Below, one piece after another: positions 19,814-60,015 of a DNA stretch of 64,000 nucleotides (its first letter is position 1; each line of letters starts with the position of its first letter). A program made the translations under genes and the position numbers. Source of the DNA: a virus. The stretch is from the IMG/VR virus record IMGVR_UViG_3300017917_001112, positions 64,001 through 128,000 of that record. One strand, 5' to 3'. The notes beneath the pieces are model-generated. The model searched no databases, had not been told where the DNA came from, and saw only the letters and a list, made by a program, of their open reading frames with translations.

Positions 19814-20374
19814 ATGACGGAAACAACAACAAAAGAAAAAGCGCATTATGTGAATAATGCCGATTTCTTAGCAGCAATAAAAATATACAGACAGAGTGTA
19901 CTAGATGCTGAGGCATCTGGTGATGAGAAACCTCGTGTTCCCGAATATATTGGGGAATGCTTGATGAAAATAGCAACACACCTGTCTTATAAATCCAATT
20001 TTATCAATTATACATACAGAGAAGATATGATTCTTGATGGAGTCGAGAACTGTCTTCAGTACATTGACAACTTTGATCCAACAAAATCTAGTAATCCATT
20101 TGCTTATTTTACGCAAATTATTTACTACGCATTTATCCGAAAAATCCAAAAAGAAAAGAAACAAACTTATGTCAAAAACAAGATGATTCTTGAAATGCCA
20201 TTTGAGATGTTTGATCTACAAGAACAAGACGAAGATGGTGAGTGGACGAATCAAATGATGGAATATTTGCGTAGTAATAATGATTCAGATTATAATATGC
20301 CAAAGAAGAAACCAGCAAAGAAAAAAACCAAAAACAATCTCGAGAGTTTTTTGGGAGATGAGAATGGAAGTTGA
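19814..20374 (+). CDS. gp55: Late-transcription sigma factor gp55
   Basis: HYVNNADFL, NPFAYFTQIIYYAFIRKIQKEKKQ; C-terminal NLESFLG. Confidence 0.96.
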   Translation: MTETTTKEKAHYVNNADFLAAIKIYRQSVLDAEASGDEKPRVPEYIGECLMKIATHLSYKSNFINYTYREDMILDGVENCLQYIDNFDPTKSSNPFAYFTQIIYYAFIRKIQKEKKQTYVKNKMILEMPFEMFDLQEQDEDGEWTNQMMEYLRSNNDSDYNMPKKKPAKKKTKNNLESFLGDENGS

Positions 20375-40556: not shown

Positions 40557-40603
40557 GATTATACATATTAATGTACCCATTTGAATTGAAGGAGAACCAA
40601 CAA

Positions 40604-41263
40604 ATGAAACTATCTAAAGACACACAAAATTTACTTAAGAACTTTGCATCTATCAACTTGAATTTGCTTTTGCGTGAGGGAAACAAACTCTCAACTATGA
40701 GCGAAAACAAAACAATCATTTCTGAAGTTACTGTTGCTGAACAGTTTCCGCAGAATTTTGGAATCTATGATGTAAATGAATTTTTGGCTGTGTTGACATT
40801 GTTTAATGATCCCGATTTGGCATTCAGTAATGATGTTGTAACTGTCAAAGAAGGCAAGAATCAAATCGTTTACAAAGCAGCAGAAGAAAGCACTTTGAAA
40901 ACACCAAGTAAGTCTATTCAATTCCCAGAAGCAGAGATTAATTTCTCACTGTCTGCTGCGGATCTAGAACACATTATCAAATCAGCAGGTATTCTTAAAG
41001 TTTCTGACGTATCATTTATCGGCAGAGATGGTAAGTTAGTTGCTCTGGTCATCGATAAGAAAAATCCTCTAACAAATAAATTTGAAATTGATGTTGGCAC
41101 AACAGATAAAACATTCCAAGCAAACATGAAAATTGAGAATTTTAAGATGTTGCCTGGATCGTATAATGTATCCATCGCAAAAATGAAAATCTGTCGTTTC
41201 AAATCAACAACCAATGATTTAACATATTACGTAGCAGTAGAATCTGATTCAACAGCTGAGTAA
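40604..41263 (+). CDS. gp45: Sliding clamp gp45
   Basis: MKLSKDTQNLLKNFASIN, FGIYDVNEFL, YYVAVE. Confidence 0.95.
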   Translation: MKLSKDTQNLLKNFASINLNLLLREGNKLSTMSENKTIISEVTVAEQFPQNFGIYDVNEFLAVLTLFNDPDLAFSNDVVTVKEGKNQIVYKAAEESTLKTPSKSIQFPEAEINFSLSAADLEHIIKSAGILKVSDVSFIGRDGKLVALVIDKKNPLTNKFEIDVGTTDKTFQANMKIENFKMLPGSYNVSIAKMKICRFKSTTNDLTYYVAVESDSTAE

Positions 41264-41279
41264 TTGAAGGGATTATATT

Positions 41280-42221
41280 ATGAGTCGTGATGAATTTTTA
41301 TGGTGCGAGAAGTATCGCCCAAAAACTATCGATGAATGTGTTCTTCCGCAACAACTGAAGGATACTTTTAAAGAATATATAAAGAACGGACAACTTCCAA
41401 ATTTTATTTTTTCTGGAAGCGCAGGTGTTGGTAAAACAACAGTTGCACGTGCATTGTGTAATGAACTTGGAGCAGATTATCTTTTTATCAACGGATCGGA
41501 AGAGAGAGGTATCGATGTATTACGAACAAAAATTAAAAGTTTTGCCTCGTCTGTTAGTCTCACAGAGGCAGGAGCAAAAGTCGTCATCCTTGATGAAGCC
41601 GACTATCTCACGCCAGACACACAAGCAGCCCTGCGTGCTTTTATCGAAGAGTTTTCCAACAACTGTAGATTCATCCTTACCTGCAACTTCAAAAACAGAA
41701 TCATCACTCCACTCCACAGTCGATGCTCAGTAGTTGAGTTTCGTATTGAGTCGGCTGAGAAACCTAAGATTGCTGCGAATTTCTTTCGCAGGATTGTAGA
41801 TATTCTCAACGCAGAGAGTGTTGAATCTGATAATAAAGTTGTAGCGAAAGTTGTTGAGACATTCTTTCCAGACTTCCGTAGAGTTCTAAACGAACTTCAG
41901 CGTTATTCTGTTGGTGGTCGTATCGACACAGGTATCTTAGCAAATCTTTCTGATGAATCCATGAAAGAATTACTCGGTTATCTAAAATCCAAAGATTTTA
42001 TGAAAGCAAGACTGTGGGTTGCAAAGAACAATGATATTGAGACATCTGTATTGTTCCGTAGACTTTATGACACAGCAGCAGATTTTCTTGAACAATCGTC
42101 TATTCCAGTTTTAATTTTAACTCTGGCAGATTATCAGTACAAGGCAGCATTTGTGGCTGATGTCGAGGTTAATAATGTTGCTGCGTTGATGGAGATTATT
42201 GCTAATTGTAAATTCAAGTGA
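41280..42221 (+). CDS. gp44: Clamp loader large subunit gp44
   Basis: WCEKYRP, GSAGVGKTT, ILDEAD, LHSRC. Confidence 0.96.
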   Translation: MSRDEFLWCEKYRPKTIDECVLPQQLKDTFKEYIKNGQLPNFIFSGSAGVGKTTVARALCNELGADYLFINGSEERGIDVLRTKIKSFASSVSLTEAGAKVVILDEADYLTPDTQAALRAFIEEFSNNCRFILTCNFKNRIITPLHSRCSVVEFRIESAEKPKIAANFFRRIVDILNAESVESDNKVVAKVVETFFPDFRRVLNELQRYSVGGRIDTGILANLSDESMKELLGYLKSKDFMKARLWVAKNNDIETSVLFRRLYDTAADFLEQSSIPVLILTLADYQYKAAFVADVEVNNVAALMEIIANCKFK

Positions 42222-42228
42222 GGTTTAT

Positions 42229-42612
42229 ATGACACCATTTGATTTTATTAATTCCATCAATCAAACAAAAGATGCTAACATAATTAAGGAACCACAGGCT
42301 GAGAAAGACTACAAAGCATTCATTATTAACAGGGGTCTAGCATACTTCCCAGACACTGTTTTACAAGCCAACGAAATGAATCGTCGTCCATGGACTCCAA
42401 GGGACTGGCAATTTTCGTTTTTGCTAAATAGTATTACCAAGAAAAAACGATTCAGTAAATGGGCTGAAAAACTGCCCAAGAACGAAGACTTGGACTTGGT
42501 TATGCAATACTATGATTATAGTAAACAAAAAGCAATGGCTGTTCTGAACTTATTGACACCAGAGCAGTTGGCTATGATAAAACAAAAATTCGAAAAAGGT
42601 GGAAGACTATGA
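42229..42612 (+). CDS. gp62: Clamp loader small subunit gp62
   Basis: PFDFINSIN, FIINRGLAYFPD, KKRFSKW; synteny. Confidence 0.92.
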   Translation: MTPFDFINSINQTKDANIIKEPQAEKDYKAFIINRGLAYFPDTVLQANEMNRRPWTPRDWQFSFLLNSITKKKRFSKWAEKLPKNEDLDLVMQYYDYSKQKAMAVLNLLTPEQLAMIKQKFEKGGRL

Positions 42613-47832: not shown

Positions 47833-50340
47833 ATGGAATTTTACACAAATGTTTTTCCCATGGGCAACAAGTTATGCGTCCGTGGGTACAGCAATGGTTT
47901 GCCGTACAAAGATAAGATAGATTTTCGCCCAACCCTTTACGTCTCGTCACCAAAGAAACATTATAGTGGCGAGATTTTTCGCACATTAGATGGTCAAGTT
48001 CTTTACGAAATCCAACCTGGATCTATCAAAGACACACGTGAATTTATTGATCGATATAAGGGTGTTGAAAGTTTCCCTGTTTATGGTAACACAAATTACG
48101 CATACCAATATATCTCGGACACATATCGCTCAGAAATTAAATTTGATAAAGATTTAATTAAGTGTTTCTCCATTGATATCGAAACAGCAACAGAAAGTGG
48201 TTTCCCTGATATTGAAACTGCTAATGAAGAGGTATTGTTAATTACATTAATGGACAATAAGACAAAAGAGATTCATACTTTTGGTCGTAGTCCTTACACA
48301 GGAAACAAGGAAGTTATTTTCCATCATGTTGAAAATGAAAAACAACTTCTCGTTGAGTTTCTAACATTCTGGAAAGATAATTGTCCAGACATCGTTACTG
48401 GTTGGAATATTGGTTTCTTTGATATTCCATATCTAGTTAGACGCATCATGGTTTTGCTTGGCGAGTCACATGCAAAACAACTATCACCATGGGGTATTAT
48501 CAACGAACGTCGTATTCATGTTAAAGGTAATGAAGAGATTACGTACGACATTGCTGGTGTTTCTGCACTTGATTATATTGATTTATACAAAAAGTTTACT
48601 TACTCAATGCAAGAATCTTATCGTCTTGATCACATTGCATTTGTTGAACTTGGCGAAAACAAACTAGACTATTCTGAGTATGATTCATTTAAAGATTTTT
48701 ATACTCATGGTTGGAAGAAGTTTGTTGATTACAACATTCACGATACTGTTCTTGTTGACAAACTTGAAGACAAGATGAAATTGATTGAGTTGGCTATCGT
48801 TATGGCATATAACGCAAAGGTAAATTTCGATGATGTGTTTTCACAGGTAAGAATGTGGGATACGATTATCTACAATCACTTGCGTTCCAAAAACATTGTT
48901 ATCCCAAACAAAACTAACAATGAGAAAGACAATGTTATTGAAGGTGCTTATGTTAAAGACCCACTTACTGGATTTCACAAGTGGGTTGTCTCATTTGACT
49001 TGAACAGTCTTTATCCGCATTTAATTATGCAGTATAACATTTCACCAGAGACTTTAATCCAAGATTACAAACATATTGGTGGTGTTGGGTATTTCTTAGA
49101 ACATGAGGAGCAAGGTGGATTTAAAGATCTAGATTATGCTTGTACAGCGAATGGTTATTGCTATCGCAAAGACATCAAAGGATTTCTGCCTGAACTGATG
49201 GAAAAAATGTATGCTGACCGAAGTAAAGCAAAGAAACAAATGCTTGCGATTCAACAGCAGTATGAGAACACCAAGGACGCATCGCTAAAGAATGAGATTT
49301 CAAGATTGAACAATTTGCAGATGGCTTTGAAGATTGCTTTGAACTCTGCTTATGGTGCGTTGGCTAATCAATATTTCCGTTATTATGATAAACGCATGTC
49401 TGAGGGAATTACGACTTCTGGTCAGTTGTCTATTCGTTGGATCGCAAATAAATTTAACGAATATTTTAACAAAGTAATGGGAACTGAGAAAGAAGATTAT
49501 GTGATTGCTGTTGACACAGATTCTGTCTATCTTAGATTTGGACCATTGGTTGATTCTTTGTTTAGTCAGGAAGAACAGAAAGACAAAGATAAGATTGTTA
49601 AGTTTATTGACAAAATCTGTGAGGATAAAATACAGAAGTACATTGATAAGTGTTATTCTGAATTGGCAAAGCGTCAAAATGCTTATGATCAGAAAATGAT
49701 TATGAAGCGTGAAGTTATCGCAGACATGGGAATTTGGACTGCTAAAAAACGCTATGTTCTCAATGTGCATAACTCTGAAGGTGTGCAATATGCGCAACCC
49801 AAGATGAAGATTATGGGTCTTGAGATGGTTAAGTCTTCAACACCAATTGTTGTTCGCGACAAGTTGAAGGAAGCATTGAAGATTGTGATTGCTGGCGATC
49901 AACTAGAACTGCGTAAGTTTATCACTGATTATCGTAAACATTTCTATTCGTTGCCTGTTGAAGAAGTTGCTTTCCCAAGAAGTGTGAACAATCTTAAGGA
50001 ATATTATGACTCTACTACCATTTATCGTAAATCGACACCGATTCATGTCCGTGGTGCTTTGATGTTTAATCATATTATCAAAGAAAGAAATCTTACGAAC
50101 AAATATCAGCCAATTAAAGAGGGTGACAGAATTAAATTTATCTATCTTCGTGAGCCGAACACTATTCGTGAAGATGTAATTACATTCGCAAATGAATTAC
50201 CAAAAGAGTTTGACCTACATAAATACATAGATTATGAGAAGCAGTTTGAGAAAGTTTTCCTTGACCCATTAACCGCAATTATGGATTCTATCGGATGGAC
50301 AGTTGAAGAAAAGAACACTCTTGAAGATTTCTTCGCATAA
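47833..50340 (+). CDS. gp43: Family B DNA polymerase gp43
   Basis: DIET exonuclease motif, SFDLNSLYP, KIALNSAYG, VDTDS; C-terminal TLEDFFA. Confidence 0.98.
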   Translation: MEFYTNVFPMGNKLCVRGYSNGLPYKDKIDFRPTLYVSSPKKHYSGEIFRTLDGQVLYEIQPGSIKDTREFIDRYKGVESFPVYGNTNYAYQYISDTYRSEIKFDKDLIKCFSIDIETATESGFPDIETANEEVLLITLMDNKTKEIHTFGRSPYTGNKEVIFHHVENEKQLLVEFLTFWKDNCPDIVTGWNIGFFDIPYLVRRIMVLLGESHAKQLSPWGIINERRIHVKGNEEITYDIAGVSALDYIDLYKKFTYSMQESYRLDHIAFVELGENKLDYSEYDSFKDFYTHGWKKFVDYNIHDTVLVDKLEDKMKLIELAIVMAYNAKVNFDDVFSQVRMWDTIIYNHLRSKNIVIPNKTNNEKDNVIEGAYVKDPLTGFHKWVVSFDLNSLYPHLIMQYNISPETLIQDYKHIGGVGYFLEHEEQGGFKDLDYACTANGYCYRKDIKGFLPELMEKMYADRSKAKKQMLAIQQQYENTKDASLKNEISRLNNLQMALKIALNSAYGALANQYFRYYDKRMSEGITTSGQLSIRWIANKFNEYFNKVMGTEKEDYVIAVDTDSVYLRFGPLVDSLFSQEEQKDKDKIVKFIDKICEDKIQKYIDKCYSELAKRQNAYDQKMIMKREVIADMGIWTAKKRYVLNVHNSEGVQYAQPKMKIMGLEMVKSSTPIVVRDKLKEALKIVIAGDQLELRKFITDYRKHFYSLPVEEVAFPRSVNNLKEYYDSTTIYRKSTPIHVRGALMFNHIIKERNLTNKYQPIKEGDRIKFIYLREPNTIREDVITFANELPKEFDLHKYIDYEKQFEKVFLDPLTAIMDSIGWTVEEKNTLEDFFA

Positions 50341-50398: not shown

Positions 50399-50644
50399 AT
50401 GACACAAGAAAATGAATTTCCGTCAATCGAAGACGTAGAAATTAAAACAACATCATTGAACAACTTGCCCCCAAAAGTAATTTGTGAAAAACATGGAGAA
50501 CTTAATGACGCATATGTGTTTAGAGTAAACATGCCAGAGTTTGGATATGAAAAAAAAACATATTGTTTAGTATGCGCAATCGAGTATCTTTCTATGATTG
50601 CTAATGAGGTTACATTCGAAGAACGTGAGGGAGAAACAAAATGA
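50399..50644 (+). CDS. Small Zn-binding hypothetical protein
   Basis: CEKHG...YCLVC. Confidence 0.55.
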   Translation: MTQENEFPSIEDVEIKTTSLNNLPPKVICEKHGELNDAYVFRVNMPEFGYEKKTYCLVCAIEYLSMIANEVTFEEREGETK

Positions 50645-51699
50645 GTTTTCTAAAAGATATTGTAAAGGAGCTTGATAATGAATATGCGGGACTGGCTGAT
50701 GATGGTGTTGTTGGTGATACATCTAATTTTATCGACACTGGTTCTTATACCCTTAATGCTTTGCTCTCTGGTAGCATCTTTGGTGGTCTACCTGGGAACA
50801 AAGTTACAGCTTTGGCTGGTGAGTCTTCCACAGGAAAGACATTCTATGCTCTTGGGATTGCGAACAATTTTCTTCGAACTGACGACAAGGCTGGAGTCAT
50901 TTACTTTGAAACAGAAGGAGCGTTGACTAAAGATATGCTCGCTGAGCGTGGCATTGATACTAAACGATTTATGATTGTTCCTGTGTCAACTGTTCAAGAA
51001 TTTAGAACTCAAGCATCTAAGATTCTAGATGCGTATGAAAAAACATCAAAGAAAGATCGCCCACCATTGATGTTGTTTTTAGATTCTCTTGGTATGCTCT
51101 CTACTTCTAAAGAAATGGAAGATACACTTGAGGGTAAAGATACTCGTGATATGACTCGTGCTCAATTGATTCGTGGCGCATTCCGTGTTCTTTCATTGCG
51201 TCTTGCTAAACTCGATGTCGCTATGGTTGTTACGAATCACACATATGCAGTTGTTGGTGCTTATATGCCAACCAAAACTATGGGTGGTGGTGACGGATTA
51301 AAGTATGCTGCTTCAACGATTGTTTTTCTTTCTAAGTCTCAGGACAAAGATGGAACTGAAGTTGTTGGTAATATCATTAAATGTAAACTTGAGAAATCTC
51401 GTTTTACACGTGAGAAGTCTATGGTTGAAACTAAACTTTCCTTTACTAAAGGATTAGATCGTTATCATGGTCTAGCAGATTTGGCTGTTGAAGCAGGAAT
51501 CTGGAAATCGCAAGGTGGACGAATTGAAGTACATGATGGTAGAAAAGTTTTCGGTAAAAACATTGCAAACAATCCTTCTGACTTCTTCACCGAAGACATC
51601 CTAAAGCAACTTGACATTTACTGTAAATCAAAGTATAATTATGGTTCAGATGATGTTGTTCAACAAGAAGAAGTAGAGGAAGAATTTAATGAGAATTGA
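50641..51699 (+). CDS. uvsX: RecA-like recombinase UvsX
   Basis: AGESSTGKT, DSLGMLST.KE, DMTRAQ, MGGG.GLKYAAS. Confidence 0.95.
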   Translation: MSFLKDIVKELDNEYAGLADDGVVGDTSNFIDTGSYTLNALLSGSIFGGLPGNKVTALAGESSTGKTFYALGIANNFLRTDDKAGVIYFETEGALTKDMLAERGIDTKRFMIVPVSTVQEFRTQASKILDAYEKTSKKDRPPLMLFLDSLGMLSTSKEMEDTLEGKDTRDMTRAQLIRGAFRVLSLRLAKLDVAMVVTNHTYAVVGAYMPTKTMGGGDGLKYAASTIVFLSKSQDKDGTEVVGNIIKCKLEKSRFTREKSMVETKLSFTKGLDRYHGLADLAVEAGIWKSQGGRIEVHDGRKVFGKNIANNPSDFFTEDILKQLDIYCKSKYNYGSDDVVQQEEVEEEFNEN

Positions 51700-53071
51700 A
51701 AATCAAATTTTTACTAATTTGATAACTCAGGAAGCGTATGCAAGAAAGGTTATTCCTTTTTTACTTCCTGAGTATTTCATGGATCGTAGCGATCGTGTGA
51801 TTTATGAGGAATATAACAAATTCTTTTCGCAGTACAACACAACTCCAACTGTTGATGTGCTGAAGATTGAGATTAGCAACAGAAAAGATATTTCTGAAGA
51901 AGAAGTAAAAAAAGTTAACGAAACACTTGATACTCTTAGCGATGAACAAACTAATATTGATTGGATAACAGACAGCACAGAGAAATTTTGTAAAGACAAG
52001 GCAGTTTACAATGCTATCATCAACTCTATCAAAATTATTGAGGGCAGGGATAAAAATCACAACCAAGATGCGATACCTTCTCTACTTTCTAAAGCATTGG
52101 CTGTTACTTTTGATTCTCACGTGGGTCATGACTATTTGGAAGACAGTGATGCTCGCTATGATTTTTATCATAGGGTTGAAGAGAAAATTCCTTTCGATAT
52201 TGACTTGCTCAACAAAATCACGAACGGAGGACTCTCAAAGAAAACTCTAAACATTATTCTTGCAGGAACAGGTGTTGGTAAATCTTTGGCTATGTGTCAT
52301 TTCGCAGCATCATCTTTGCTTCAGGGTAAAAATGTGTTATACATAACTATGGAGATGGCTGAGGAGAGAATCGCAGAGCGTATTGATGCCAATTTGCTAG
52401 AGTTGACTATGGATTCTTTAAAGATGGTTGAGAAACGTGTTTTCGATGCTAGACTTGAAAAGATTCGCAATAAAACACATGGTAAGTTGATTGTTAAAGA
52501 ATATCCTACTGCTTCTGCCCACGCAGGACACTTCCGTGCTTTAATTGAAGAACTGCGTATGAAGCGTGATTTTACACCTGATATTATTTTTATTGATTAT
52601 CTTAATATCTGTTCTTCTCAGCGTCTTCGTATGGGAGCAAATGTAAACTCTTATACATATATTAAAGCGATTGCTGAAGAGTTGAGAGGATTGGCAGGTG
52701 AATATAAAGTGCCTTTGGTGAGCGCAACGCAAACTACTCGTTCTGGTTATGCTAACACAGATCCAGGACTTGAAGATACTTCAGAGTCATTTGGTCTGCC
52801 AGCAACAGCAGATTTGATGATTGCGTTGATTGCCACTGAAGAACTTGATCAAATGAATCAGATTATGGTTAAACAATTGAAAAATCGTTATTCTGATCCA
52901 AACTTCTATAAGCGTTTTGTTGTTGGCGTTGATAGAAAACAAATGAGATTATACAATGTTGAAATGAGTGCTCAACTACATATAGAGGGACAGGGAACTG
53001 TTTCTGATGATACGCCACTATTTGACGCAACGAAATTTGGCAAACGCATTAAGAGTGAAGCATTCGAATAA
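51689..53071 (+). CDS. gp41: Replicative helicase gp41
   Basis: LAGTGVGKS, IDYLNIC, AIAEELRGLA, SESFGLPATAD, KQLKNRY. Confidence 0.96.
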   Translation: MRIENQIFTNLITQEAYARKVIPFLLPEYFMDRSDRVIYEEYNKFFSQYNTTPTVDVLKIEISNRKDISEEEVKKVNETLDTLSDEQTNIDWITDSTEKFCKDKAVYNAIINSIKIIEGRDKNHNQDAIPSLLSKALAVTFDSHVGHDYLEDSDARYDFYHRVEEKIPFDIDLLNKITNGGLSKKTLNIILAGTGVGKSLAMCHFAASSLLQGKNVLYITMEMAEERIAERIDANLLELTMDSLKMVEKRVFDARLEKIRNKTHGKLIVKEYPTASAHAGHFRALIEELRMKRDFTPDIIFIDYLNICSSQRLRMGANVNSYTYIKAIAEELRGLAGEYKVPLVSATQTTRSGYANTDPGLEDTSESFGLPATADLMIALIATEELDQMNQIMVKQLKNRYSDPNFYKRFVVGVDRKQMRLYNVEMSAQLHIEGQGTVSDDTPLFDATKFGKRIKSEAFE

Positions 53072-53081
53072 GGAGAAAAAA

Positions 53082-54443
53082 ATGGTTCAGGTTATTGTAG
53101 CAGACAAACTTTATGATTCAGAACATCTACTTGGTATGTTCGTTGACGAATCGCATTATGATATTCTTATTGAAGAAGATACGGATTGTTATCTCCCAGC
53201 TGATTGCGATATCGCAACACAAGCGAATTGTGATAAAGATTGTTCTGCTTGTGATATTGGAGCCGATGAGCGTAGAATAGCATTTAAGTTTAGAAAGAAC
53301 TTCTTCTCAAAAGAAGAACAAGAACAAGCATATGTTGGTTTGCGTGAAGCAGCAGTTCGTACAGAAAATCGTGGATTGGCTTCAGGAATTAAAGCAGGAA
53401 CATCAGTAACAGGCGAAGGACGTGAGTGGGTTACTAATTATCAAGAAGAAATGATTAATGGAATTCTATCCTCAAGAACTGCTCAGTTGGTTGATGGGGA
53501 TATTATTTTAGAAATTCGAGAAAAATATCCAACACCAGAATCACGTTTGAAAGCATTGGGTTCTGGTAAGAACAATGTTTGGGTTATCTCACGTTTCCGT
53601 GGTAAATTTAATTTTGATGAATGGGTTGATTCAATCATTCCTTTAGATCGCGAAGCAAGAGCAAAAGCAACTGAAGAAGTTATGACAATGATTAGCGAAA
53701 CTTCTTATGGCAATCCAGTTGACTCAGGTATCGCAGGTTGGTTTGACAGATATCCACGTATTCCTTATGGTAGAGCAACAACATATACAAGAGATAATCC
53801 AGAAAAATTTGCTATGGCGTACCCATTTCTACAACATTTGGCAAAAGGATTTAAGGAGTTACTACCACAAAGATATGCTGCGCAAAAAGCAGCAACAGAT
53901 AAAATTGATCCAAGATTCGTAATTCCTGAGACACCATTTACTACTGTAACTGTTAACAAAACATTTAGAACTGCAGCGCATCGCGATGCTGGTGACTTTT
54001 CTGATGGTCTATCTAATTTGCTTACACTTTCTAATGATGGTAGATATACTGGTGGTTATTTGATTTTTCCAGAGATTCGTATAGCAGTTAATGTACGACC
54101 AGGAGATTTGCTTCTTGTGAATAACCATGAGGTAATTCATGGAAACACACCGATTGTTTGTGAAGAAGGTTCTGAGCGTGTTTCGCTGGTTGTTTATCTT
54201 CGTGAAAACATGTTAGAACTTGGTTCTTATGAATATGAAAATTCAAGATTCGAATTTGTTGAGTCACGCAGATTGAACAAAGAACATCCACTTTGGAAAA
54301 AATTGTGGAATGGTGTTTCTCCAGGAATGTGGGAAGAACAAGAATGGTACGACTTTTTAAAATCACGTCCGAATGGCGAACAAATGCTTGCGAAGTATCA
54401 CCCGAAAGCACTTGAAGCATCTCTAGATGAATTCTTTGCTTGA
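53082..54443 (+). CDS. TET/JBP-family 2OG-Fe(II) nucleobase dioxygenase
   Basis: FTTVTVN..RTAAHRDAGD (HxD), IHGNTPI (H), RVSLVVY (Rx5-aromatic); SD-led start at 53082; tail SLDEFFA. Confidence 0.8.
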   Translation: MVQVIVADKLYDSEHLLGMFVDESHYDILIEEDTDCYLPADCDIATQANCDKDCSACDIGADERRIAFKFRKNFFSKEEQEQAYVGLREAAVRTENRGLASGIKAGTSVTGEGREWVTNYQEEMINGILSSRTAQLVDGDIILEIREKYPTPESRLKALGSGKNNVWVISRFRGKFNFDEWVDSIIPLDREARAKATEEVMTMISETSYGNPVDSGIAGWFDRYPRIPYGRATTYTRDNPEKFAMAYPFLQHLAKGFKELLPQRYAAQKAATDKIDPRFVIPETPFTTVTVNKTFRTAAHRDAGDFSDGLSNLLTLSNDGRYTGGYLIFPEIRIAVNVRPGDLLLVNNHEVIHGNTPIVCEEGSERVSLVVYLRENMLELGSYEYENSRFEFVESRRLNKEHPLWKKLWNGVSPGMWEEQEWYDFLKSRPNGEQMLAKYHPKALEASLDEFFA

Positions 54444-54468
54444 CATTAATCTATATACATAGTAAAAT
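54440..54468 (+). promoter_or_regulatory. sigma70 promoter
   Basis: TTGACA-N17-TAAAAT overlapping the upstream stop codon. Confidence 0.65.
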
Positions 54469-54487
54469 ATAGTTTTGGAGATTTAAT

Positions 54488-55321
54488 ATGGCATGGCAAT
54501 CAAGTTATTGGTCTTGTTCTAAATTTGCTGATTGGCTTCGTGGAACACCGAAGCCAGAAGCAGAAACAAGTAAAGGATGGCGTCTTTGGAGAGAAGCATC
54601 TGAGAAAGAACATCCATTTCGTTTTTGGTTGGCGGAAGAAGGACTTGATCACATTCAGGACTTCGTAACTTATCCAAGCAGAAAAGTAAACGATTTAATG
54701 TATTATTTGAATAATCGGTTTGTTACTAAAACGCATGCACTAACATCTCACCCTCGTGATATTCCTCGTGGCGAATGGCGAGATGTTGGTAATCGTTTTC
54801 TCCCCTGCCTGTTCAATGAACTTGTTGATTTTGTCGAGGTCGAACAAGCATGGCATCACTGTATGTGGGATGACAAAGCACGAAAAGAATTTAAAGTGCC
54901 TTGGACACGCAGGGGTTTTTTACGTCTTAGAACTTGGCGTTGTCCAGAAGCAGGGTTGTCTTATCTGAATTGGGCAAAGGATTTGACTAATGCTGAGTTT
55001 CTTGATGAAGATAAGAAACATGAAGCAGAGTTGACACATCAAGCACTTGCTGCTCGCGAGATTCTAGAACTCTATCACTGGTGGAAAGAAGTTTATTCAA
55101 AACGTCTAGATCCATACGATTCTAGTGGTTGGTCTGCTATTTGCGAGAGAGAACGCAAAGAAGGACGTGACTTACTTGACATGGAAGACAGAAACGAAAC
55201 AGAGCGTGAAGAGAGAAATAATTCTCTAGATCTTCTACGTAAAATAGAAGAAGAATACGAAAAGGAAGACGAAGAAATGATGATTCGTCTTATCAAAATC
55301 CGTCAATCACTGTGGACTTAA
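54488..55321 (+). CDS. Trp-rich hypothetical protein
   Basis: 277 aa; ELYHWW, IKIRQSLWT; no function recognised. Confidence 0.7.
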   Translation: MAWQSSYWSCSKFADWLRGTPKPEAETSKGWRLWREASEKEHPFRFWLAEEGLDHIQDFVTYPSRKVNDLMYYLNNRFVTKTHALTSHPRDIPRGEWRDVGNRFLPCLFNELVDFVEVEQAWHHCMWDDKARKEFKVPWTRRGFLRLRTWRCPEAGLSYLNWAKDLTNAEFLDEDKKHEAELTHQALAAREILELYHWWKEVYSKRLDPYDSSGWSAICERERKEGRDLLDMEDRNETEREERNNSLDLLRKIEEEYEKEDEEMMIRLIKIRQSLWT

Positions 55322-55325
55322 ACAT

Positions 55326-56669
55326 ATGAAAATCTTAATGGTAATGCATACCTTCAATAACTTTGGAGGAATTATCAATCACTGCGAACATTTAATGGCA
55401 GGATTAAAAGAAATTGGTCACGAAGTAAATTTCGCATATCTTAAAGGCAACTCTACTGTAAGACCAGTTGAAATTCCTTCTAAACTTGCCGAAGGTTATG
55501 AGATTGGTATTGGTTCAGGTTATCCAGTGCACCAAGGTGATGGATGGATTGCGCCATACTATTCTTACAAAGTAAAAGAATCTGTTGACAAATTTGTTAA
55601 GACTGCCAATGAGCATGATATTGTGATTTGGCAGTCTATTTTTGGATTTAAAAACAAAGACACTGAGAAATACAAGGGTTGGTTGCCAATGGTTGAACAA
55701 GTCAAGGCAAAACAAGTTGTAATTATTCACGATGCTAATCTTAAAAAATTATATCCATGGATTTCTCTTTATGAAAAACATTTCGCTGGTCTTGCTTGCG
55801 TTCATCCTGCAGCATACGATTCAGCAGACTTTATGTCCACACCTCGAGCGTTAATTTTGAACCCTCAGGATATTGATGGCGTACCACCTACTCCAGAGTT
55901 TGCTGGTCGCGAAAACAAAATCTTGTCAATACAGACATTCAAACGCTGGAAGCGTGTGGACGACCTTATTCGTGCTGTTCCTTACATGAAAAATGTCAAG
56001 ACATTGGTAGGTGGTTATGGTATTGAGGCAGCATATATGATGTCGAAAGACAAGTGTAAAGACGAATACTTCGCAACAACACAATATGATCCAGACGTAA
56101 CACCTGACCGAGAAGGAAAGCGTATTTGGGAAAACGCTGAAAACTCAGGAAATTTTGAATATCTCGGTTTTATTTCTGGAGCGAAACGTGATGAGATTCT
56201 ACAAACATCTAAGTTTTTGGTTGACCCTTCTTGGAGCAATACTTTTGGTGAGCACTTCAATCGTGTTGTCGTGGATGCAATGCGGATTGGGACTGTGCCC
56301 ATTGCTGTAAATTTTGGTGTTTCCAACAACGAAGAAGGTAATGGAGTTTTGTTGAAGGCTGGTGAACACTATTGTATGCTCCGCAAGGATTTTACTCCAA
56401 AACAATATGGAGAAGCAATCGCTAACTTCTGTAATATGAGCGAATCCGACTACAAACGTATTCAGCTAAATAACTACGAACTAATCAAAAAGTTTGATCG
56501 AAAGGTAGTTGCTCAGCACTATATCGACTTGGCTATGGGTAAGGAAACAGGTTATCTAAACGAACTCAGAACCAAGACGAACCATGATCCATCTATTGTC
56601 CGAAATTCCATTAAAATGTTCGAAGAACACTTCGAACAGGCATCAGACTTGGACGAATTCTTCGCATAA
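55326..56669 (+). CDS. GT-B glycosyltransferase (probable DNA glycosyltransferase)
   Basis: MKILMV...GGIINH, KRVDDLIRA, EHFNRVVVDAMRIGTVPI; tail DLDEFFA. Confidence 0.8.
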   Translation: MKILMVMHTFNNFGGIINHCEHLMAGLKEIGHEVNFAYLKGNSTVRPVEIPSKLAEGYEIGIGSGYPVHQGDGWIAPYYSYKVKESVDKFVKTANEHDIVIWQSIFGFKNKDTEKYKGWLPMVEQVKAKQVVIIHDANLKKLYPWISLYEKHFAGLACVHPAAYDSADFMSTPRALILNPQDIDGVPPTPEFAGRENKILSIQTFKRWKRVDDLIRAVPYMKNVKTLVGGYGIEAAYMMSKDKCKDEYFATTQYDPDVTPDREGKRIWENAENSGNFEYLGFISGAKRDEILQTSKFLVDPSWSNTFGEHFNRVVVDAMRIGTVPIAVNFGVSNNEEGNGVLLKAGEHYCMLRKDFTPKQYGEAIANFCNMSESDYKRIQLNNYELIKKFDRKVVAQHYIDLAMGKETGYLNELRTKTNHDPSIVRNSIKMFEEHFEQASDLDEFFA

Positions 56670-56674
56670 ATGTC

Positions 56675-56703
56675 TTGACATCGAACACCTTTTAGGGTAT
56701 AAT
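56675..56703 (+). promoter_or_regulatory. sigma70 promoter
   Basis: TTGACA-N17-TATAAT. Confidence 0.8.
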
Positions 56704-58806: not shown

Positions 58807-60015
58807 ATGTTTAATTTAAAAGGTTACATTGCGGAAGCAGCTAATGATACAACAAGATTAAAACACTTGTCGCATTTAGAAGATCTCATTTTTGAAGAAG
58901 GTAAACAAGGTTTACAATTTGCTATTGATAGTATTCAAATATATGTAAACGCATTATACAACAAATCTTCTGGCGCAACAATCACAACCAAATGGGATGG
59001 TTCTCCATCAATCATCGTTCATCAATCGGGAAATGATTATTGGGTCGCATCAAAATCAGCATTTAACGCAACCCCAAAACTAAACAGAACTGATTCTGAT
59101 ATTGAAGCAAATCACGGACACTCTGCTGGTTTGGTTGAGAAATTAAAATATGCACTGAAATATTGTAAAGATCTTGGTATTAATGGAACTTTGCAGGGAG
59201 ATTTCTTATATACTGATGGTGATTTAAAACCACAAACAATTGATGGAGTAAAACATGTTACTTTCAAACCCAATACTATTACTTATGCTGTCGCTGTGGA
59301 TAGCGACTTGGGGCGAAGAATCCTCGCTTCTAAGATGGGTATTATTTTTCACACTTATTATACTGGCAATGACTTTACCACTATGAAAGCAAATTTTGGT
59401 TACTCAGTTGAGAAACTAAAAAAGTCAAGAAATGTTTTTGTTGATGATGCTATTCTAAAAGATAAAACAAAAGATCTAACTCTAACACAAGCAGAACAAG
59501 AAACGATATTGAATGCGCATGCTGAATTGAAGAAATTGAACATGGCTATACCAACATCGTTTTTGTCTTGGTTGTCTACACATAAAATCGTATCTGCATT
59601 GATTGCAAAATATAACAATGCTAATGTGCGTGCTGGTAGTTACGTTGGTTCATCAAAGGCGCATGGTGTTTCGCAATTTATTCACGATGAGTTACAAAAA
59701 GAAATTGATAAAGTAAAGACAACAACAACTAAAACAAAAAAAGAAAACGAAAGACAACAGATTTTAGATTTCGTTGATTCACATAAAATGGTTCTAGAGA
59801 AAGTATATGAAGCATTCTCTCTAGTTGTTGCTTGTAAAATGATTATTGTTTCGAAATTAAATAGACTCGAGACTGGCGTATCTGGATTTGTGGAGAAAGG
59901 TAACGCATTGGTGCCAACAGCACCAGAAGGTTTCGTTGCGGTTCAAGGAGATCGTGTTGTTAAGTTGGTTGATCGACTTGAGTTTTCAAGAAATAACTTT
60001 TTGAGGCAGAGATGA
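58807..60015 (+). CDS. Ligase-like nucleotidyltransferase (DUF6267-type)
   Basis: HLSHLED, TKWDG, LQGDFLY, PEGFV, VKLVDRLEFS. Confidence 0.65.
   Translation: MFNLKGYIAEAANDTTRLKHLSHLEDLIFEEGKQGLQFAIDSIQIYVNALYNKSSGATITTKWDGSPSIIVHQSGNDYWVASKSAFNATPKLNRTDSDIEANHGHSAGLVEKLKYALKYCKDLGINGTLQGDFLYTDGDLKPQTIDGVKHVTFKPNTITYAVAVDSDLGRRILASKMGIIFHTYYTGNDFTTMKANFGYSVEKLKKSRNVFVDDAILKDKTKDLTLTQAEQETILNAHAELKKLNMAIPTSFLSWLSTHKIVSALIAKYNNANVRAGSYVGSSKAHGVSQFIHDELQKEIDKVKTTTTKTKKENERQQILDFVDSHKMVLEKVYEAFSLVVACKMIIVSKLNRLETGVSGFVEKGNALVPTAPEGFVAVQGDRVVKLVDRLEFSRNNFLRQR

Follow-up and report, generated by a model that had tools for sequence, protein, structure and literature searches.

The 64,000-nt stretch analysed here (the window) corresponds to bases 64001-128000 of IMG/VR record IMGVR_UViG_3300017917_001112, a complete 165,256-bp genome with direct terminal repeats that belongs to a T4-like phage from a lake; positions are those of the window unless the genome is named. 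The replication module lies on the plus strand. There, the family-B DNA polymerase gene gp43 (47833..50340, +; PF00136, PF03104 and phrog_262) is upstream of the genes for UvsX (50641-51699, +) and a gp41-like helicase (51689-53071, +), and after the helicase come, in this order, a TET/JBP dioxygenase (53082..54443, +), a protein of 277 aa (54488..55321, +) and a GT-B glycosyltransferase (55326..56669, +). Our subject is the short peptide with which the polymerase, the dioxygenase and the glycosyltransferase end, namely TLEDFFA (50317-50337), SLDEFFA (54420-54440) and DLDEFFA (56646-56666), and which an initial annotation of the window had proposed to be a docking tail for the sliding clamp gp45.

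The dioxygenase is of the TET/JBP (5mYOX) type. Its open reading frame (ORF) spans 53007-54443, and the true start of the 453-aa protein was put at 53082 from homologue coverage. It matches PF12851 at 1.5e-23 (83.3 bits for a cut-off of 34.9), and H300, D302 and H353, which make up the HxD...H iron triad, are invariant in the homologue alignment. The AlphaFold2 (AF2) model (predicted local distance difference test score, pLDDT, of 86.6) has TET2, NgTET1, CcTet and CMD1 at the top ranks of a Foldseek search, TET2 and NgTET1 both at E 2e-10; the modelled fold is TET-like. The glycosyltransferase, a GT4-like protein of 447 aa, matches PF00534 (Glycos_transf_1) at 8e-10 (38.9 bits for a cut-off of 26.4). 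Its AF2 model (pLDDT 87.4) was matched by Foldseek to PimA, BshA and other GT4 enzymes, and at E 6e-11 to the T4 alpha-glucosyltransferase (alpha-GT; 1y6f), the modelled fold being a GT-B of the GT4 type. Its synteny with the dioxygenase, the common tail and the likeness of its fold to that of T4 alpha-GT suggest that its acceptor is DNA, carrying 5-hydroxymethyluracil (5hmU) or 5-hydroxymethylcytosine (5hmC).

A terminal peptide found three times in the genome

That three unrelated proteins share nearly the same last seven residues had been noted in the initial annotation, and translation confirmed it: immediately before the stop codon, gp43 reads EEKNTLEDFFA, the dioxygenase EASLDEFFA and the glycosyltransferase ASDLDEFFA. 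Among 205 greedy gene calls made over the 165,256 bp of the genome, the sequence L[DE][DE]FF occurs three times, on each occasion as the C-terminus of one of these proteins. They are also the sole carriers of a C-terminal L[DE][DE]FFA, for an expectation of 3.5e-5 from composition. The related NLESFLG that had been reported near the end of the late sigma factor gp55 (19814..20374, +; phrog_234 at 1e-61) is indeed present, at 20336-20356, six residues before the C-terminus.

Such ends might reflect a C-terminal structural coincidence, a signal for protein stability or breakdown, or an overlap with regulatory DNA, without any role in recruitment. In keeping with this, the stop codon of the dioxygenase gene overlaps the -35 box of a sigma-70-like promoter site (54440..54468, +; consensus match only, 11/12 positions) located 5' of the 277-aa gene and the glycosyltransferase gene, and the baseplate hub protein has an FF end (DSFF) within its fold. 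The promoter-like overlap, however, concerns one tail out of three, and the chance expectation given above is minute. Moreover, L, D/E, F and A are encoded by different codons in the three tails, and the stop codons differ as well; it is therefore the peptide that is conserved or selected, and not a DNA repeat. Together with the position and the distribution of the tail (see below), this makes an origin without a recruitment role very improbable.

The hub protein (genome 24723-25433, minus strand), which ends in EGIDSFF, was considered as a fourth client of the clamp and rejected, as this end is part of the folded PF12322 domain (match to position 218 of 219). Hub homologues in G001, C48C1, DLP6 and Cr30 end in a similar [DN]FF, which is also part of the fold.

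Conservation and distribution of the tail

Of the proteins scored, 2492 belong at E <= 1e-10 to the dioxygenase family, a large one from freshwater metagenomes, and tails were read in the best 120 of them. The pattern [ST]L[DE]xFF, placed at the very end or one residue before it, was present in about 115 of these 120. The tail was found in 116 of 120 glycosyltransferase homologues and is conserved in 28 gp43 homologues; as the docking proposal would have it, the tails of both enzymes are thus conserved. In the two enzymes, 3-9 variable residues separate the last conserved element of the domain (KYHP for the dioxygenase and HFE for the glycosyltransferase) from LxxFF. The tail therefore lies behind a variable linker and outside the folded domain, which also argues against a structural coincidence. 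AF2 confidence is low over it in both models (over the last 13 residues for the dioxygenase, with a fall over the tail for the glycosyltransferase). One lineage of dioxygenases (P0073, found in the IMG/VR loci L032 and L033) ends in NLMEMDL; in L032, gp43 (NLEEFFG) and the glycosyltransferase (VLDEFFG) have canonical ends.

The range of proteins that carry the tail was surveyed in 83 loci (80 IMG/VR loci around dioxygenase homologues and three named phages), which hold 3570 ORFs. The strict tail pattern was met with in 138 ORFs, all of which belong to seven clusters: gp43, TET, GT-B, two clusters of TET-associated glycosyltransferase (TAGT; PF20691), one of amino-acid:DNA transferase (ADDT; PF18724) and one of an unknown 346-aa protein beside a dioxygenase. 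That there are seven such clusters, restricted to gp45-encoding phages, is a further argument against coincidence. Gp43 aside, all tailed proteins with an assignable family are DNA-modifying enzymes. One ADDT (L080:15050-16030) ends in GLEKFFT, and an unclassified 346-aa protein encoded just 3' of a dioxygenase (L082:8793-9833) ends in IENFFDD. Other genomes supplied three more cases. In phage C48C1, a Dam-type N6-adenine methyltransferase (PF02086; L100:14480-15364, i.e. OQ984149.1 33480-34364) encoded directly 3' of gp43 ends in STLDAFFG, and the polymerase similarly ends in TLEDFFG. A fusion of 658 aa between a TET/JBP domain and a P-loop nucleotide kinase (weak Ploopntkinase3 match; P0228, L134:1259-3235) ends in DLSEMFG. 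The Melnitz short dioxygenase ends in NLNDFLGE and its polymerase in TLEDFFG. Tailed TET proteins of other architectures (P0145, P0162 and the fusion P0228) were on short contigs. The tail could serve as an easily read marker in the search for new DNA-modifying enzymes of T4-like phages, the FF end of the baseplate hub being a trap for any screen of this kind.

The presence of the tail follows that of the gp45 gene. A gp45 family search was positive for 16 of the 17 records with a tailed dioxygenase, the lone exception being a record that is 44% complete, and for none of the 32 records with tailless short dioxygenases, 10 of which are at least 90% complete. These short dioxygenases, which are of the ParB-associated type and about 300 aa long, had the tail in 0 of 80 cases. 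Gp45 and the tail are both missing from phages HTVC112P (where a ParB gene adjoins the gene of the short dioxygenase), P12024L and S-CBWM1, and both present in Melnitz and C48C1. Two tailless dioxygenases are of the long form: in locus L218 such a TET stands beside an ADDT and a kinase that are tailless as well, and in L220, from a phage with a family-A (PolA-type) polymerase, TET and Dam both lack the tail. Judged from their sequences, tails appear to be all-or-none per phage in these two cases.

Proposed docking on the gp45 clamp and competing explanations

The proposed docking platform, gp45, is encoded at 40604..41263 (+). The protein matches PF09116 and PF02916 as well as phrog_223 (1.8e-67), and phmmer aligned it with gp45 of RB69 (1b77/1b8h, E 4e-29) and of T4 (1czd, E 8e-29); its start was placed at M12 of ORF 40571-41263 (position 40604), where the phmmer alignment begins. 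From Pfam and PHROG matches, the phage encodes both a gp45-type clamp and the corresponding loader, made of gp44 (41280-42221, +; Pfam AAA and Gp44_lid, PF21328) and gp62 (42199-42612, +; Phage_clamp_A, PF16790). RegA is encoded in the same plus-strand module.

The gp43 end GWTVEEKNTLEDFFA aligns with the T4 gp43 end GMDYEEKASLDFLFG, from the preceding EEK to the last residue (EEKNTLEDFFA and EEKASLDFLFG), and by this alignment it is positionally homologous to the clamp-binding tail of T4 gp43. The actual T4 sequences have [ST]LDFL[FLY] in common: besides gp43, gp33 ends in NTLDFLL and gp55 in SLDFLYEAND, where SLDFLY is four residues from the end. Crystallography of a ligase loop peptide (dissociation constant, Kd, about 10.7 uM) and of the RB69 gp43 tail has established that LDFLF binds a hydrophobic pocket of gp45 (PMC6212786), and this pocket is the common site for polymerase, ligase, gp33 and gp55 (PMC7892883). 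Like the motifs of T4/RB69 gp43, gp33 and gp55 and of the ligase internal loop (PDB 1B8H, 6DRT; PMC6212786, PMC7892883), the heptapeptide is short and hydrophobic, follows a flexible linker close to the C-terminus or at it, and is common to the polymerase and other proteins; S-L-D-F-L-F-G and T-L-E-D-F-F-A can be matched residue for residue. The proteins that carry it differ, since they are DNA base-modifying enzymes instead of replication or transcription factors. The core differs too, being LxxFF with an acidic x, and is closer to the PCNA-interacting peptide (PIP) box than to LDFLF. L-x-x-F-F is the core of the PIP box. A gp33 candidate was set aside as evidence (genome 18734-19006, +, 90 codons stop to stop): its match to T4 gp33 is at E 0.0055 only, and it was not used. 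Its end, QATLDV, might represent a truncated form of the clamp motif in the late co-activator.

Acidic tails with terminal aromatic residues mediate replisome contacts elsewhere, examples being those of the single-strand-binding protein (SSB) and of T7 gp2.5. By analogy, the tail could dock on some other common partner, such as the single-strand-binding protein, the helicase or its loader, or a phage-specific scaffold. Such a partner seems improbable, though: the gp43 tail is the positional counterpart of the T4/RB69 tail for which a crystal structure with gp45 exists (PMC6212786), gp55, which is a known gp45 client, has the related NLESFLG, and the tail is present where the gp45 gene is.

We consider it likely that the heptapeptide is a gp45-docking tail and that the dioxygenase and the glycosyltransferase act on the clamp, masking newly made phage DNA chemically. 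The homology between the gp43 and T4 tails, the conservation among homologues, the other tailed enzymes and the link with gp45 all favour the earlier suggestion that the enzyme tails are gp45-docking peptides held in common with the polymerase. The motif [S/T/D]-L-[D/E]-[D/E]-F-F-A would then be the clamp-binding motif of this phage, an LxxFF, PIP-box-like variant of the T4 LDFLF. During replication, gp44/62 would load gp45 trimers on phage DNA, and as each trimer has three pockets, the polymerase, or clamps that stay behind the fork, could hold the dioxygenase and the glycosyltransferase on the new duplex. There the dioxygenase would probably oxidise thymine to 5hmU, to which the glycosyltransferase would then add a sugar, giving a product that resembles base J. 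Physical binding, clamp-dependent processivity or activation, and a benefit in telling self from non-self are predictions of this reading; the self/non-self specificity put forward in the initial annotation is purely conjectural.

Two precedents exist for DNA-modifying enzymes on a sliding clamp. T4 alpha-GT binds gp45 (Sommer et al. 2004, PMID 15381072; confirmed in PMC13216743). It is a phage GT-B DNA glycosyltransferase in physical contact with the clamp, and the enzyme studied here, for which such contact is proposed, resembles it in fold. T4 alpha-GT, however, has no polymerase-like tail (it ends in KEQFDIITK) and works without a dioxygenase, its substrate 5hmC being produced as a nucleotide. 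The other precedent is DNMT1, which uses a PIP box to bind PCNA and thereby gains efficiency on new DNA (PMC9690074). It too is a DNA-modifying enzyme that sits on a sliding clamp and prefers newly replicated DNA, but as a maintenance methylase of eukaryotes it copies a mark that is already there, whereas the phage would have a hypermodification pathway of several enzymes tethered to its clamp. In view of these two cases the finding is a variant of a known principle. The claim that no clamp-coupled pair of TET and glycosyltransferase had been described holds in part: as far as the text was searchable, the literature contained no paper describing clamp-binding tails on phage TET/JBP or glycosyltransferase enzymes, but clamp tethering of DNA-modifying enzymes as such was already known.

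Several observations weigh against the tethering of the two enzymes to gp45. In T4, contact with gp45 was not the main determinant of glucosylation levels by alpha-GT, promoter strength being of more importance (PMC13216743), and tethering may therefore matter less than expected. The motif is unlike that of T4, in that D/E replaces F and only three hydrophobic contacts are left. A few homologues have a degenerate tail, for instance the L032 TET with its NLMEMDL. The difference between gp45-positive and gp45-negative phages is largely one between two clades, and amounts to few independent events; that unrelated enzyme families repeatedly carry the tail is a stronger argument than this contrast. 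Lastly, within-genome co-variation of the tails is weak. The idea that they vary together with the gp43 tail found some support in suggestive cases: Cr30 has LF in all three of its tails (polymerase, TAGT and dioxygenase), and dioxygenase and glycosyltransferase both end in DDMFG in one lineage and in LFG in another. Overall it was not borne out to more than a small extent. A permutation test on unique pairs gave p = 0.02-0.04 for overall identity, phylogeny not being corrected for, and there are discordant pairs, such as NMFA for TET and DFFS for gp43 in G001, or FF for TET and LF for the glycosyltransferase in L037. From these variants, F, L and M all seem to be tolerated by the gp45 pocket at the variable position.

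The weak co-variation would suit a tolerant, low-affinity contact, and is in keeping with another possibility: that the tails do bind gp45 but for timing or limiting access (through competition with gp43, gp33 and gp55 for the pockets), for coupling to late transcription or for raising local concentration with small consequences for how much modification is finally reached, and not for processive modification behind the fork. A limit on access is conceivable given that the clamp has only three pockets, which gp43 and gp55 also use (PMC7892883), and the T4 result points the same way, as most of the alpha-GT share of glucosylation was explained by promoter strength and not by gp45 binding (PMC13216743). 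Against this, the presence of the tail on several unrelated modifying enzymes and in hundreds of homologues bespeaks a strong selective benefit, and tethering to PCNA does increase the efficiency of DNMT1 on new DNA (PMC9690074). We regard these other roles as unlikely, if somewhat less so than a partner other than gp45.

If the tails dock on gp45, a portable peptide that recurs on five or more unrelated enzyme families would tie hypermodification to the replisome; it would be the logic of DNMT1 on PCNA applied to a multi-step chemical pathway. Post-replicative modification could in this way have a quick, and perhaps selective, route to the phage genome that needs no pool of modified nucleotides. 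A bolder extension, which we put forward tentatively and do not favour, is that an entire T4-like hypermodification toolbox, made of TET/JBP dioxygenases, glycosyltransferases of the GT-B and TAGT kinds, amino-acid:DNA transferases, kinases and Dam methylases, has to be loaded or activated by gp45 via the portable LxxFF tail. Were this true, clamp loading would confine hypermodification to replicating phage DNA. Produced on their own in E. coli, some ParB-less phage dioxygenases of clade C1 show no activity (PMC13229309, PMC8256090), and lack of the clamp could explain it. A practical prediction, should the tails dock, is that reconstitution of phage 5mYOX pathways in E. coli would profit from the cognate clamp and its loader.

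Predicted pathway and neighbouring features

Profile matches over the complete genome revealed no C5-cytosine methylase (PF00145), no ThyA-type hydroxymethylase (PF00303) and no ParB (PF02195). Because these three are missing, thymine is the likely substrate, and the pathway, as read from the gene content, would be T -> 5hmU -> glycosyl-5hmU. According to published surveys, most phage 5mYOX enzymes come without a C5-methylase and probably make 5hmU (PMC13229309; bioRxiv 10.1101/2023.12.21.572611), and in relatives of the present phage the same tail is found on enzymes of 5hmU pathways (ADDT and kinase). The published phage pathways that combine 5mYOX and glycosyltransferase (PMC8256090; Pyle et al. 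2024, bioRxiv 10.1101/2023.12.21.572611; PMC13229309) are alike in enzyme families and gene neighbourhood. They are also post-replicative, with thymine oxidation likely where a C5-methylase is missing. The authors of these 5mYOX surveys had remarked on the gp45/clamp genes near such glycosyltransferases (PMC8256090, bioRxiv 10.1101/2023.12.21.572611, PMC13229309). Compared with the published ones, the present dioxygenase has about 200 additional aa on the N-terminal side, and it is without a ParB partner.

The absence of PF02195 from the genome sets this dioxygenase apart from the ParB-dependent subclass of phage T-dioxygenases, in which ParB is co-encoded (PMC13229309). There is nonetheless a likeness between the two, as each would be a thymine dioxygenase with a DNA-associated partner, and ParB relatives are DNA clamps; here, however, the partner would be the replication clamp, contacted by a terminal peptide of which the short, ParB-type forms are devoid. 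In the synthesis of base J in kinetoplastids (JBP1/2 and JGT), a TET/JBP enzyme likewise oxidises thymine of DNA to 5hmU before a sugar is added, but the glycosyltransferase belongs to another family and kinetoplastids have no known clamp tether.

The protein of 277 aa encoded between the two enzymes has no clamp tail. It is without a family in Pfam or PHROGs, and the ESM Atlas gives viral hypothetical clusters only. Its gene is syntenic, at 54-88% identity, only in closer relatives that also have the GT-B enzyme, and it may be a further component of the pathway. Besides the promoter-like site that precedes it, consensus matching gave two sigma-70-like sites at 12/12 positions, one (51611-51639) before the helicase gene and the other (56675-56703) before the gene that follows the glycosyltransferase gene. 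From their sequences, these sites would fit early expression alongside the replication genes. Two genes 3' of the glycosyltransferase, at 58807-60015, lies a gene for a DUF6267 protein (PF19782, E 1e-87).

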